Positions 2,583 to 23,923 are shown, counted from the first letter of the stretch. The stretch: DNA of 28,126 nucleotides from a bacterium (GCA_043806295.1 JAZDHA010000024.1:1-28126); one strand, 5' to 3'. The notes: a model not told the origin generated them from the letters alone. Translations and numbers: made by a program.

Positions 2583-4634
2583 ATGGCTCCCAATAAGATA
2601 AAAGAACGCGCGATAAAGCTTCGCGAATTGCTTGCTCATCACGCTCACCAGTACTACTCATTGGACGCGCCGGAGATTTCGGACAGTGCGTATGATGCTT
2701 TGCATCGCGAATTGCACGATCTGGAAGAACAATATCCGGAACTATTGCATCCCGACTCGGTTACTCAACGCATTGTTGGCGAAGCATTGCCGTTTTTGAA
2801 AAAAGTGCGGCATACTGTTCCGCAATGGTCATTCAACGATGCTTTTTCTGAAGAAGAAGTGAGAGCGTTTGATGAACGTGTACGCAAGGTCTTGCGTGGA
2901 CATCCGATGTCCTTGGGACATCGGATGTCCACGCTCTCATACGATTGTGAACTTAAAATAGACGGACTTAAAGTCGTTTTCTCCTATGAAAAAGGTGAAC
3001 TGGTGCTCGCGGCGACGCGTGGAGATGGCGTTACAGGCGAAGATGTAACGCATAATGTTCGTACAATTTCAGAAATACCGGAACAACTTACTCGCCCAAT
3101 TAATTTAATTGCGGAAGGCGAAGTATATCTCACCCGTTCCGGGTTTTTGAAATTGAATGCTACTCGTCGAGACAATGGAGAGCCAGAATTTGCGAATCCT
3201 CGTAACGCCGCCGCTGGTTCCATTCGCCAACTTGATCCAAAGATTGCTGCTGAACGACCGCTTGGTGCATTTATCTATGACATTGCTCAAACTTCAGAAG
3301 CATTTCCAAAGACACAGAGCGAAGAACTTTCCTATCTAGCAGAACTAGGGTTACCGGTTAATCCGGAACGACAACGAGCCGATTCTCTTGAAGAAATTTT
3401 TTCATATTGGCAAAAGTGGCAGGGAAGTCCTTCGCTTCGCTCTGGATCTCCGACGCCGCGAGAGAGTGTTGACTATCAAATTGATGGCATAGTGATAAAA
3501 GTTGAATTGCATACGGTACAGGAAATGCTCGGTTACACTGGGAAAGCACCGCGTTTTGCTATTGCATACAAATTTCCATCAGAACAAGTTGAGACGATTC
3601 TTGAAGACATTTCGTTGCAGGTTGGTCGCACTGGACGACTTACACCAGTTGCGCATTTACGCCCTGTAATTGTTGCCGGCACAACTGTCGCGCGCGCAAC
3701 ACTGCACAACGAGGACTTTATAAGAGAAAAAGATATTCGTATTGGAGACACTGTTATTCTGCAGAAAGCCGGCGATGTAATCCCAGAAATTGTTTCAGTC
3801 ATCAAAGAATTACGACCGAATAGAGCGAAGTTATGGCAATTTCCGACACATTCGCCGCTTTGTGGCGGTGATTGTGTCATAGAACGAATACCAGGCGAAG
3901 CGGCTCATCGTTGTAAAGTGGCTGGTTCATTTGAACAACAAGTTCGCAGAATTATTCATTTCGCTGGGAAGAGTGCTTTTGATATAGATGGTATGGGGCG
4001 AGAGACCGTGAGAATCCTTATGGAACATAATTTGATTTCTGATTTTGACGATATCTTTTGCCTTACGAAAGAAGAATTACTTACTCTTCCGGGGTTTGAG
4101 GAGACAAAAGCTGAAAATCTCATCAAGGCAATTGCTGTAGCTAAAAAAGTTGAATTTGATCGTTTGCTAATCGGACTTGGAATTCCACATGTTGGCGGCG
4201 AGACAGCATTTCTACTTGCGACTCATTTTCGTACACACCTAATGCTACAGAAAGCAAATGAGGAGTCAATTTCAAAGATAGATGGCATTGGTCCGATTAT
4301 TGGCCGGGCGGTCACCGAATGGTTCCAAGATAAAAATAATCAGGCGCTCATCGAGCGGCTCATGAAGCATCTGAAAGTAGCAAGGGTTACCCTTGCTACA
4401 ACAGGGGTTTTGCAGGGACAGACGGTGGTGATCACCGGTACCTTACCGACCATTTCAAGAGAAGAGGCCGAAGCACGCGTGCGCAAAGCGGGAGGAAAAG
4501 CGGCTACATCTGTCTCAGCAAAAACATCTTTTGTTGTTGCAGGAGAGAATCCAGGCACTAAACTCACCAAAGCTGAGCAACTCGGCGTGCCGGTTATCGG
4601 TGAGGCCGAGTTCCTCAAGAAGTTTGGAGCGTGA
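2583..4634 (+). CDS. ligA: NAD-dependent DNA ligase
   Basis: ELKIDG adenylation motif, [38 protein letters not shown], HhH region and C-terminal BRCT domain. Confidence 0.98.
2894..2934. repeat. In-frame palindromic element, family A (19-bp perfect stem, TTG loop) in ligA
   Basis: GCGTGGACATCCGATGTCC-TTG-GGACATCGGATGTCCACGC; encodes [13 protein letters not shown]. Confidence 0.9.
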
Positions 4635-4646
4635 TAAAGTAAAGCA

Positions 4647-4970
4647 ATGGCAACGACTGAAGAAGTGAAGAAGCTCGCGGGACTTGCGAGAATACGCGTT
4701 GAAGATGCGGAATTGGAGAAATTCACGAATGAATTTGACGCGATACTCGCATATGTCGAGACCATTTCTATGGTCGAGATGCCGCAAAACAAAGCGTTGC
4801 AGCGCGGACAAATAGGTGAAGAAAAACCATTTCTGCGCAATGTTATGAGAGAAGATAGTGAACCGCATACCGGAGGTGAATACACTGAAAAAATCGTAGA
4901 GCAATTTCCAGAAAGCAAAAATAATGCGCTTGTTGTAAAACAGATTATTTCGCATGAAAAAGCCGAATGA
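4647..4970 (+). CDS. gatC: Asp-tRNA(Asn)/Glu-tRNA(Gln) amidotransferase subunit C
   Basis: VKKLAGLARI, ILAYV, LRNVMRED motifs; directly before gatA. Confidence 0.92.
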   Translation: MATTEEVKKLAGLARIRVEDAELEKFTNEFDAILAYVETISMVEMPQNKALQRGQIGEEKPFLRNVMREDSEPHTGGEYTEKIVEQFPESKNNALVVKQIISHEKAE

Positions 4971-21658: not shown

Positions 21659-21715
21659 CTTTCACACCTCCTTTTTGTTCGGTGAACTCGCAATACCGCG
21701 GTTAATATACCACAT

Positions 21716-23923
21716 TTATTCCAGATGCATTTCTTTGTCGGCAGTATGGGCGCGAAGGGAGAGGGCGGGGTAGTTTTTTAATTCGGGGTCGGCGGCAACT
21801 AAAGCCGCCGCTTCAGTGCGGGCGGCTTCTACCAATTTAATGTTCTTCAATGCTTCCATAGCGATGTCAGAAACACCCCACTGTTTGCCGCCAGCGAGTT
21901 CGCCCGCGCCGCGGAGCGCGAGATCATATTCAGCGAGTTCAAAGCCGTTCTTCGCATTTAAGAATGCCTTCATGCGATCTCGCGTTGTTTCGCCAGACGA
22001 TTCGGGAAGTGCAAAGCAATATGACTGATGCGTAGAACGAATTACGCGCCCGCGAAGCTGATGAAGTTGTGCGAGTCCAAATCGTTCTGCTCCTTCAATA
22101 AGAATTACTGTTGCATTCGGTACATTCACACCTACTTCAACAACAGAAGTCGCTACGAGGATATTTATCTCACCACTCTCATATTTTTTCATTGTTTTTT
22201 CTTTTTCTGCAGGAGTCATTTTGCTGTGCAATATGCCTATCTCTGCTTCAAGAAAAACATCTTTTTTCAGTCGAGCGGCTTCTGTTTTAACTGATTTTGC
22301 TATTAGAGCGAGTTCTTTTGCCGGATCCGGCTCGTCTATTCTTGGGCAAATAACATACGCTTGATGCCCGAGCGAGAGTTCGGCACGAACGCGCTCATAC
22401 GCGCGTTCGCGTTCTTTTTTGCCGAGTACCTCGGTAATTACTTTTTTGCGGCCGGCCGGCATTTCATCAAGCAACGAAAGATCCAAGTCGCCATAAAGCG
22501 TGAGCGCGAGCGTGCGCGGGATAGGCGTTGCGGTCATCGACAATAGGTGGGGAGCGACCGCATCTTTCGTCACGATTTTCTGCCGGTGCATTGTGCCGAA
22601 ACGGTGTTGTTCATCGATAATAGCGTACGCGAGATATTTAAATGAAAGTGATTTTTCAATGAGTGCATGAGTACCGATGACAATCGGAATCTCTCCATTT
22701 GCTATCATCTTTTTGAATGCCGCTTTGGAAAGTTTCGCGGAGTCCTCATAGCGAACGCGAGAAGGGAACTTTCTACATTCGCTGCCAGTGATAAGACCGA
22801 TGGGAATCGGATGGTCCTTAAAATAAGAAACAAATGTAGAAAAATGTTGTTTCGCGAGTACCTCGGTCGGGCAGAGATAAGCGACTTGGAGTGTTCCGGC
22901 AATTCTTCCCGACGGGAGCGAAGTAGCGACAAGATACGCAGTTGCGGCGGCGACCGCGGTCTTTCCGCTCCCGACATCGCCTTCAAGAAGGCGCATCATT
23001 GGATGCGGTTTCTTGAAGTCAGAGACAATAGTGTCGATTGCTTGTGTCTGTGCGGTAGTTGGAGGGAAGGGGAATGATGCAATAAAATCGGCAAGTTTTT
23101 GATGATCGACTGAGACAGACAATGCCTTTTCAGCGCGAAGCGCGCGACGGCGTTGTTGCATCACAATCTGAAGTGCGAAAATTTCTTCAAAGGAAAATCT
23201 CTTGCGTGCTGCAGTTGCATCAGAAAGTTTTTGTGGCGCATGAATGAAAATGAGTGCAGAAGAAAGCGAAGGCAGATTGTATCGTGCTAGAATCTCTGAC
23301 GGAATAGGGTCTTCTATATTTTCATGCACTCCTGTCTCGAACGCTCTTTTCAGAGCGTGCAAGAACCAGAGTGACGAAATACCCTGACTCTCGGGATACA
23401 CTGGAAACAACTCGGTGTCGAACTTGGACATCCGATGTCCAAGTTTCTGAACTTGGACATCCGATGTCCTAACTTCGGGATTGAATAACGATTTAACTAC
23501 GGAGTCAGGAGCAATGGGTGACTTATCAATCGCTGGATTTGCCAAGTATATTTTCGTTCCTGCTCCCGCCACCTTTCCGCTTACTTTAACCACCATTCCG
23601 TCGTGCAATGTCTTCGCGATGTATGGCTGGCTGAACCACATCATTTTTATTTTCCCCGATGCGTCTTCAAGCCACGCTTCTGCAATCGGTCTACGGCTTT
23701 TCCATGTCTTCCTTATGTCTGGCTTGCGCACGGTGCCATAGAGCGTTACCTCGGCTCCGGCCGAAATTCCAGCAATAGTTCCAGCTGCACCAGCTTGTTC
23801 ATATCGAGCTGGAAAATGATAGAGCAAATCGCGAATTGTTCGTATTCCTAACTTATGCAACGCCCGCTTCTGCTCGGGCTTCAATCGCGTGAAGTGCTTT
23901 TCAATCAGATCATTAGGATTCAT
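21716..23923 (-). CDS. recG: ATP-dependent DNA helicase RecG
   Basis: TIRDLLYHFPARY, wedge/OB domain, LLEGDVGSGKT, IIDEQHRFG, MTATPIPRTL, QLHQLRGRV, DL.LRG.GE. Confidence 0.98.
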   Translation of the reverse strand: MNPNDLIEKHFTRLKPEQKRALHKLGIRTIRDLLYHFPARYEQAGAAGTIAGISAGAEVTLYGTVRKPDIRKTWKSRRPIAEAWLEDASGKIKMMWFSQPYIAKTLHDGMVVKVSGKVAGAGTKIYLANPAIDKSPIAPDSVVKSLFNPEVRTSDVQVQKLGHRMSKFDTELFPVYPESQGISSLWFLHALKRAFETGVHENIEDPIPSEILARYNLPSLSSALIFIHAPQKLSDATAARKRFSFEEIFALQIVMQQRRRALRAEKALSVSVDHQKLADFIASFPFPPTTAQTQAIDTIVSDFKKPHPMMRLLEGDVGSGKTAVAAATAYLVATSLPSGRIAGTLQVAYLCPTEVLAKQHFSTFVSYFKDHPIPIGLITGSECRKFPSRVRYEDSAKLSKAAFKKMIANGEIPIVIGTHALIEKSLSFKYLAYAIIDEQHRFGTMHRQKIVTKDAVAPHLLSMTATPIPRTLALTLYGDLDLSLLDEMPAGRKKVITEVLGKKERERAYERVRAELSLGHQAYVICPRIDEPDPAKELALIAKSVKTEAARLKKDVFLEAEIGILHSKMTPAEKEKTMKKYESGEINILVATSVVEVGVNVPNATVILIEGAERFGLAQLHQLRGRVIRSTHQSYCFALPESSGETTRDRMKAFLNAKNGFELAEYDLALRGAGELAGGKQWGVSDIAMEALKNIKLVEAARTEAAALVAADPELKNYPALSLRAHTADKEMHLE
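23420..23475. repeat. Two tandem in-frame palindromic elements, family A, in recG
   Basis: GAACTTGGACATCCGATGTCC at 23420-23440 and 23449-23469 (29-nt period); 23421-23445 is a 12-bp-arm palindrome; encodes EVRTSDVQVQKLGHRMSKF. Confidence 0.92.

Follow-up and report, generated by a model that had tools for sequence, protein, structure and literature searches.

The window analysed here, the whole of a 28,126-nucleotide stretch (GCA_043806295.1 JAZDHA010000024.1:1-28126), carries short palindromes within ligA, gatA, ftsH, recG, typA and other genes. We are fairly confident that these palindromes are non-autonomous hairpin repeats of the type of repetitive extragenic palindromes (REPs) and REP doublets forming hairpins (REPINs), most likely copied by Y1/HUH transposases resembling REP-associated tyrosine transposases (RAYTs) that are encoded elsewhere in the genome. 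Families of palindromes far above chance, RAYTs with cognate co-varying hairpins, empty sites, recurrent occupancy of the same sites and mirrored differences between copies were all observed directly. About half of the copies lie in frame inside genes, so that parts of core proteins are spelled by selfish repeats. Two families, B and C, behave like the others but have no identified RAYT in the source genome or in its closest sampled relative.

The window is contig C24 of the source genome assembly (G000: 566,680 bp, 78 contigs, 44% GC; completeness 93.6% by marker genes). The host is a bacterium of the candidate phyla radiation (CPR/Patescibacteria), Kaiserbacteria-like, with a very gene-dense genome of 0.57 Mb. 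The closest sampled relative, G057, was compared over its whole genome and has a median protein identity to G000 of 72%. GC content is 53% in G057 and 44% in G000, a big compositional shift inside one genus at that level of protein identity.

Hairpin families in the genome and in the window

Perfect hairpins with a stem of at least 10 and a loop of at most 5 numbered 231 in the whole genome, compared with 1-11 in third-order Markov shuffles, and those with a stem of at least 12 numbered 117, compared with 0-2. The motif TCCGCC-N3/4-GGCGGA occurred 16 times in the genome (0.0 expected) and 3 times in the window alone (0.01 expected). Family A was present in 24 of 61 genomes and family B in 15 of 61, and reversed-pattern controls gave 0 in all 61. 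Chance origin of the palindromes is excluded; a motif count against a codon-shuffled background had been proposed in a preliminary description of the window, made from its sequence alone.

That description had recognised at least three sequence families in unrelated genes, and more than ten were found in the genome. The families first noticed were A (GGACATC-S-GATGTCC), B (CCTGCCTGCCGGCAGGCAGG) and C (TCCGCC-N3/4-GGCGGA, which also forms a 30-mer doublet); to these are added A' (GTAGGACTTC-S-GAAGTCCTAC), a 43-nt A/A' composite and families D to N. When up to 2 mismatches were allowed, there were 50 copies of A-type units, 18 of family B, 10 of family D and 3-9 of the others. Family C was counted by exact match only and has 16 exact copies; its counts with up to 2 mismatches (36, 41) are near the ~20 estimated by hand as chance for a 12-base pattern. 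Units are 15-30 nt in size and doublets 41-45 nt. Thirty-two of the 50 A-type units are paired into 16 doublets, 15 of them inverted, with a spacing of 25-28 nt. GTAG or GTAA occurs within the stems of A', D, F, I and N, and no conserved head flanks the stem of family A. Families B and C are even-length true palindromes centred on GCCGGC, CAGCTG or GGATCC and, unlike the RAYT-linked families, have no unpaired centre. No reading frame of the A, B or C cores, on either strand, contains a stop codon, as had been noted for the 15-mers.

All palindromes listed in the preliminary description were recovered at their positions and are real, the one at 16466 with one mismatch; the list had missed the family D copy at 4377-4399 and the family H copy at 9202-9224. 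Host genes were named from their best NCBIfam families (LigA, GatA, FtsH, RecG, TypA, PanD), the best match of recG being slightly below the cut-off. The palindromes of the window are given below in window coordinates, with the strand where one was assigned.

2894-2934: family A doublet in ligA, in frame; two inverted GGACATC-S-GATGTCC units; +10 aa
4377-4399: family D palindrome GTAGCAAGGGTTACCCTTGCTAC in the ligA linker ahead of the BRCT domain; family D flanks the C58 RAYT gene
5001-5022: family B variant, gatA site 1, reads LPAGRQ; palindrome as first listed, 5003-5020; net +5 aa
5113-5142: family C 30-mer, gatA site 2, reads SAEGGSAFGG; two 15-mers forming one perfect palindrome
6321-6336: family C 16-mer TCCGCCAGCTGGCGGA, gatA site 3, reads PPAGG; +4 aa relative to most orthologues
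8044-8072: family M (GGACAC-type) palindrome over the panD stop codon; the TAG stop is inside the left arm
9202-9224: family H palindrome between two convergent genes; terminator-like position
16466-16481: degenerate family C copy in typA, reads PPSGG; one arm mismatch; weakest member
16991-17033: family E palindrome right after the typA stop; perfect part 17000-17024
18235-18250: family C-like hairpin inside the tmRNA gene; 13-nt insertion relative to the Rfam model
18447-18468: family B palindrome in the ftsH N-terminal tail, reads LPAGRQ; perfect copy
23421-23475, minus strand: two family A units in a recG loop (RTSDVQVQKLGHRMS); loop shared by several families among species

The RAYT gene on C69 is flanked by family I, of which family H is a mirrored variant. 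Family E has 5 exact copies genome-wide and 9 with up to 2 mismatches. There are nine TCCGCC-N4-GGCGGA 16-mers in the genome, five of them identical to the gatA copy at 6321-6336. The hairpin at 18235-18250, formerly given as possibly in tmRNA, falls within the tmRNA gene annotated by Rfam (17914-18326). The panD stop codon within a family M arm matches GTAG-type REPs, which are known to supply stop codons (PMC3733652). One further hairpin, in recG at 22386-22409, was rejected as a repeat member: it is ordinary conserved coding sequence with an identical peptide in G057.

Of the 125 family copies, 65 lay in frame and deep in open reading frames (ORFs) of 150 aa or more; another 18 were in shorter ORFs or at the edge of an ORF, and the remaining 42 were outside long ORFs. 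The stop-free families A, B and C are among those most often intragenic, and families F, I, K, M and N, which have stop codons in their stems, are mostly intergenic. This distribution is as expected from a selection filter acting on random insertions. Family B reads LPAGRQ in 9 of its 13 in-gene copies. In an AlphaFold2 (AF2) model of GatA, made with 29 close orthologues and with a mean predicted local distance difference test (pLDDT) score of only 56, the three inserts fall in predicted coil at residues 18-27, 50-64 and 452-461.

RAYT-like genes and their flanking hairpins

Ten ORFs of 218-252 aa in G000 matched Pfam Y1_Tnp, nine of them above the cut-off. The HUH histidines (H69/H71) and the catalytic tyrosine Y129 are invariant in the ten proteins. 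REP_Tyr_transpos (NF047646) was the best and sole NCBIfam match for all ten, and the sole PDB sequence match was E. coli TnpA-REP, 4ER8. An AF2 model of the C34 protein (pLDDT 85.4) fits hairpin-bound Y1 transposases (ISDra2, TnpA-REP, IS608), with E-values of 7e-5 for ISDra2 and 8e-5 for 4ER8, the latter giving the longest alignment.

Next to each of the ten genes lies a REP-like hairpin, always of a single family, on one side or on both. Six have it at both ends (at least one of the copies being imperfect for C13 and for C74), and the genes on C30, C33, C41 and C69 have a hairpin on one side only. The flanking families are as follows.

RAYT gene on C34: family A
RAYT gene on C41: family A'
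RAYT gene on C58: family D
RAYT gene on C23: family K
RAYT gene on C69: family I
RAYT gene on C49: family J
RAYT gene on C30: family F
RAYT gene on C13: family N
RAYT gene on C74: family G-like
RAYT gene on C33: family GGATTT-type

Similarity clusters among the RAYTs parallel the similarity of the hairpin arms; the C23 and C58 proteins, for example, are 62% identical and both genes have GCAAGG arms. In G057 nine RAYT loci were found, seven of them flanked likewise. Homologues of the C34 RAYT were found in 17 other CPR genomes, most of them with a co-varying hairpin of the GGACATC-S-GATGTCC type on both sides, 7-75 nt ahead of the start and at most ~46 nt from the stop. The search for HUH/Y1 genes flanked by the same hairpins, which the preliminary description had suggested, thus yielded ten RAYT-like genes outside the window, with family A at C34 and none for B or C.

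Some RAYT genes also contain a hairpin of their own family in frame, ~150 nt into the ORF (C41:462-492; L115 at ~1657; L116 at ~1648). The AF2 model predicts a loop there, at residues 43-45, with low confidence.

Empty sites, recurrent occupancy and replacement

Alignment with orthologues from relatives, also suggested beforehand, revealed empty sites in ligA, gatA (three sites), recG and ftsH, and in typA and tmRNA from one relative. The ligA insert at 2894 is absent in 17 of 19 orthologues; the same position holds one degenerate unit in G008 and a palindrome of unrelated sequence in G011. Site 1 of gatA (5001-5022) is filled in G000 and G040 and, in degenerate form, in G035, and only in those among 30 species; the three closest relatives lack it. 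Site 2 (5113-5142) is an exact 30-nt insertion between TTT and GAY without target duplication. Its 30-mer is common to G000 and G008 only, and in G008 the loops have changed in mirror fashion, leaving a perfect palindrome. At site 3, one public metagenome contig lacks exactly 12 nt. Some empty versions of sites 1 and 3 are themselves weak hairpins. The typA copy adds 3 aa relative to G057, the single relative compared, and the 13 nt inserted in tmRNA relative to the Rfam model are likewise absent from the tmRNA of G057.

Two side observations concern gatA. At site 3 (orthologous loci L022 and L027), G057 and G008 carry a different 24-nt insert, PSTSLGIK, which forms no perfect palindrome. Many unrelated contigs of a single metagenome run from the subsurface (summed depth ~155) match only the gatA 30-mer, with loose ends at both borders; the family C 30-mer is widespread in that subsurface community. 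The evidence from public runs consists of low-depth Logan contigs, possibly including the source sample, and covers presence and one 12-nt empty allele, with no read-level polymorphism. Public contigs identical to the window were found across 4377-4399 and 18447-18468, from runs that may include the source sample.

Forty-nine loci could be tested against G057. At 27 of them G000 was at least 3 aa longer, at 6 a hairpin was present in both genomes, at 10 the length was the same with no hairpin in G057, and at 6 G000 was shorter. Random windows of the same alignments were longer in 7.3% of cases, compared with 27/49 repeat loci (p=2e-18).

The RecG loop between SLF and LYPIYPES is occupied by five different families, mostly as doublets; it is filled in 13 of 30 species and empty in 17. 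In a RecG tree built with that loop masked, well-supported sisters differ in state (G009 empty and G034 filled; G040 filled and G068 empty) or carry different families (G035 and G010). The occupant is A in G000, A plus P in G047 and P in G057. At sites filled in both G000 and G057, ~15 mirrored pairs of changes were read from the alignments between copies, compared with 2-3 unmirrored changes. Two G057 variants were traced, and each recurs at another G057 locus. The mirrored differences, together with the recurrence of the G057 variants at other loci, indicate that the site was kept and its occupant exchanged.

At two sites of the window the length hardly changed. The ligA palindrome at 4377-4399 shows no length difference relative to 19 orthologues. 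The perfect ftsH copy at 18447-18468 is present in G000 only, among 29 readable species, with almost no net length change relative to 28; G013 and G051 have possibly decayed look-alikes. At both sites the palindrome thus took the place of existing sequence instead of adding to it. Such replacement could have come about by gene conversion, by insertion anew into a resident hairpin or by strand exchange between copies mediated by a RAYT. A more far-reaching proposal, which we put forward only tentatively, is that the "slots" in the essential proteins of these gene-dense CPR genomes are fixed and that their occupants are actively rewritten to the family or subfamily that the current RAYTs propagate, sometimes at the same length, with B and C forming a RAYT-independent class that uses another enzyme. 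If this is true, stretches of 5-15 residues in core proteins co-evolve with the DNA specificity of a transposase and not with protein function.

Alternative explanations and relation to known systems

Under the explanation we prefer, each of the ten RAYT paralogues probably recognises the hairpin family on its own flanks. The RAYTs would copy the hairpins on single-stranded DNA and, in so gene-dense a genome, new copies would land mostly in genes. The surviving copies would be those that keep the frame, are stop-free and lie in tolerant loops, linkers and tails; the peptides GHPMS, RTSDV, LPAGRQ and SAEGG in LigA, GatA, FtsH, RecG and TypA would be their residue. Tolerant sites are struck repeatedly, a resident copy may be swapped for another family or subfamily, and some copies replace sequence at unchanged length.

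Several results weigh against copying by RAYTs. The ten proteins score 24-38 bits on NF047646, for which the equivalog cut-off is 80. No RAYT gene flanked by family B or C was found in G000 or G057, and these two families supply half of the window elements (5001, 5113, 6321, 16466, 18235, 18447). Across 61 genomes the copy number of family A showed no link to the presence of a C34-type RAYT; G061 and G001 have 12 and 7 family A copies without a detectable C34-type orthologue, and two of the three C34-type orthologues found carry a stop codon. The 3-50 copies per family are well under the hundreds typical of REPs. No transposition was seen. At the 72% protein identity of the closest genome, junctions are unreadable to the base. 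The zero-length replacements in ligA (4377) and ftsH (18447) are unlike simple cut-and-paste insertion. The earlier proposal of non-autonomous mobile hairpins that insert peptides is thus supported by the empty sites and the flanked RAYT genes, with the qualifications that no enzyme was identified for B and C and that at least two copies (ligA 4377, ftsH 18447) are not plain insertions.

The rival closest in weight, to which we give somewhat less than an even chance, is that B and C belong to a separate, non-RAYT system, spread for example by small GIY-YIG nucleases beside tRNA genes. It draws on the lack of RAYT genes with B or C flanks in G000 and G057, on the lack of an unpaired centre in both families, and on the 30-mer, which is widespread on unrelated contigs of the same metagenomes. 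In addition, B or C occupies the D-loop position of a tRNA remnant that lies ahead of two GIY-YIG genes in G000 (of four in all) and of one in G040. However, no B/C palindromes were found near the 30 best GIY-YIG loci of the genus (the ORF finder failed on 13 of the 30), the tRNA remnants may be neutral DNA that gathers any palindrome, and the metagenome-assembled genomes are incomplete, so that a cognate RAYT for B or C could be unassembled.

The GIY-YIG genes concerned encode 88-95 aa beside tRNA genes (G000 C45:2560-2990 and C7:13950-14420; L209, G040:C4:22700-23110). Ahead of the gene, each of these three loci has a partial duplicate of the adjacent tRNA (its 5' part), with B or C at the D-loop; L210 (G009:C51:2200-2470) has the same GIY-YIG/tRNA layout with other palindromes. 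The arrangement resembles a cassette that inserts by homing into a tRNA gene and rebuilds it. In the window itself, a tRNA-Ile with anticodon TAT was predicted by ARAGORN at 21115-21187; in most bacteria AUA is decoded instead by a modified CAT anticodon.

Mobility itself would be denied if the intragenic copies were old, fixed and immobile, with selection keeping a useful DNA or RNA hairpin through compensatory substitution in place. Several copies do stand at orthologous codons in G000 and G057, orthologous copies differ by mirrored arm changes, and copies persist without a detectable cognate RAYT. We nevertheless regard this as unlikely: the state of the recG loop differs between well-supported sisters and five unrelated families occur there, more than half of the testable loci are absent from the closest relative, and one public contig lacks the 12-nt insert in gatA. 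The recurrence of the two traced G057 variants at another locus of that genome points to copying and not to change in place. Local, independent origin by template switching or quasi-palindrome correction during replication would suit the weakly hairpinned empty forms of gatA sites 1 and 3 and the perfect symmetry that is kept, but local processes cannot yield identical sequences of 15-43 nt in many genomes and at as many as 50 unrelated loci, which makes this origin very improbable. We give equally little credence to DNA uptake signals or binding sites of host proteins that selection, not transposition, would have enriched. Competence and pilus genes are present in CPR bacteria, and uptake sequences elsewhere also occur in coding DNA, in tolerated frames; here, however, more than ten families are present at 3-50 copies instead of one motif at hundreds, and most are tied to a RAYT gene. 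An assembly artefact, a possibility raised at the outset, could be suspected in an assembly fragmented into 78 contigs, but it is hardly credible when dozens of independently assembled genomes contain these families, in some cases at identical codons, and public contigs span two of the copies unchanged.

The defining architecture of REP/RAYT systems is a RAYT gene bracketed by its own REP, and published REPs typically have more than 100 copies (PMC2817692). The reference systems are E. coli TnpA-REP/YafM (4ER8) and the RAYTs of Pseudomonas and Stenotrophomonas (Nunvar 2010, PMC2817692; Bertels and Rainey 2011, PMC3116915). Published REPINs are described as measuring ~100 bp, numbering in the hundreds and lying almost entirely outside genes (bioRxiv 10.1101/2021.07.10.451892). 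The present system shares with them a Y1/HUH homologue bracketed by its own palindrome, dispersal, inverted doublets and several co-varying pairs per genome. It differs in that doublets are ~40-45 bp, copies number 3-50 and half are in frame in genes; in that there are ten paralogues in 0.57 Mb, below the NCBIfam cut-off; and in that the palindromes are mostly perfect, apparently with no separate GTAG head. Its copies are not confined to extragenic DNA, 65 of the 125 being deep in long ORFs.

REPs wholly within ORFs, single or as dimers, adding extra residues and lying in many replication and repair genes including DNA ligase, were described by Di Nocera et al. 2013 (PMC3733652). Those GTAG/CGTC REPs were a minority of a mostly intergenic set in large proteobacterial and other genomes, unlike the present case, in which about half of the copies are intragenic, the host is a CPR bacterium, and hot spots and exchange occur. 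Rickettsia palindromic elements (RPEs; Ogata et al. 2000, cited in PMC3733652) are palindromes in frame in genes of a reduced genome, and these genes remain functional. The resemblance to RPEs proposed in the preliminary description holds for in-frame insertion, genes that stay open and a reduced genome; it does not extend to unit size, 15-45 nt here, or to the association of most families with a RAYT, and the closer precedent is the REP/RAYT system with intragenic REPs. Elements of the RPE-1 type are roughly 100-150 bp long and are not known to have a cognate transposase.

The enzyme fold and, probably, the recognition of hairpins on single-stranded DNA are shared with IS200/IS605 elements and their palindrome-associated miniature derivatives, whose insertion without target duplication fits gatA site 2. 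Unlike those, the units are single hairpins or doublets without distinct left and right ends, and the RAYT gene was not seen moving as part of the element. For families B and C, a possible analogue by behaviour only is the GC clusters of yeast mitochondria, which belong to another domain of life and share no sequence with them. These clusters are GC-rich palindromes, likewise short, within a genome that is richer in AT; they are mobile with no known mover, and now and then one lies in frame within a coding gene.

By its architecture the system belongs with REP/REPIN-RAYT and, in-frame REPs being already known, it is a variant thereof. It is set apart by its CPR host, ten RAYTs in 0.57 Mb, short perfect palindromes, low copy numbers, an intragenic half, recurrent slots whose occupants are exchanged and two RAYT-less families. 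No paper joining RAYT or REPIN with CPR/Patescibacteria was found in the literature searched, most subscription journals being outside its reach.

REPINs are usually portrayed as extragenic, with gene density limiting their spread; here a replicator persists within the proteins of a gene-dense genome. The ten natural pairs of enzyme and hairpin in one genome are useful for studying how RAYTs read their targets, and the inserts mark out which loops of LigA, GatA, RecG, FtsH and further core proteins tolerate insertion in nature. They also give lineage-specific indels in marker genes used for phylogeny and probably help to fragment CPR assemblies. Part of the CPR core proteome is dictated by selfish DNA.

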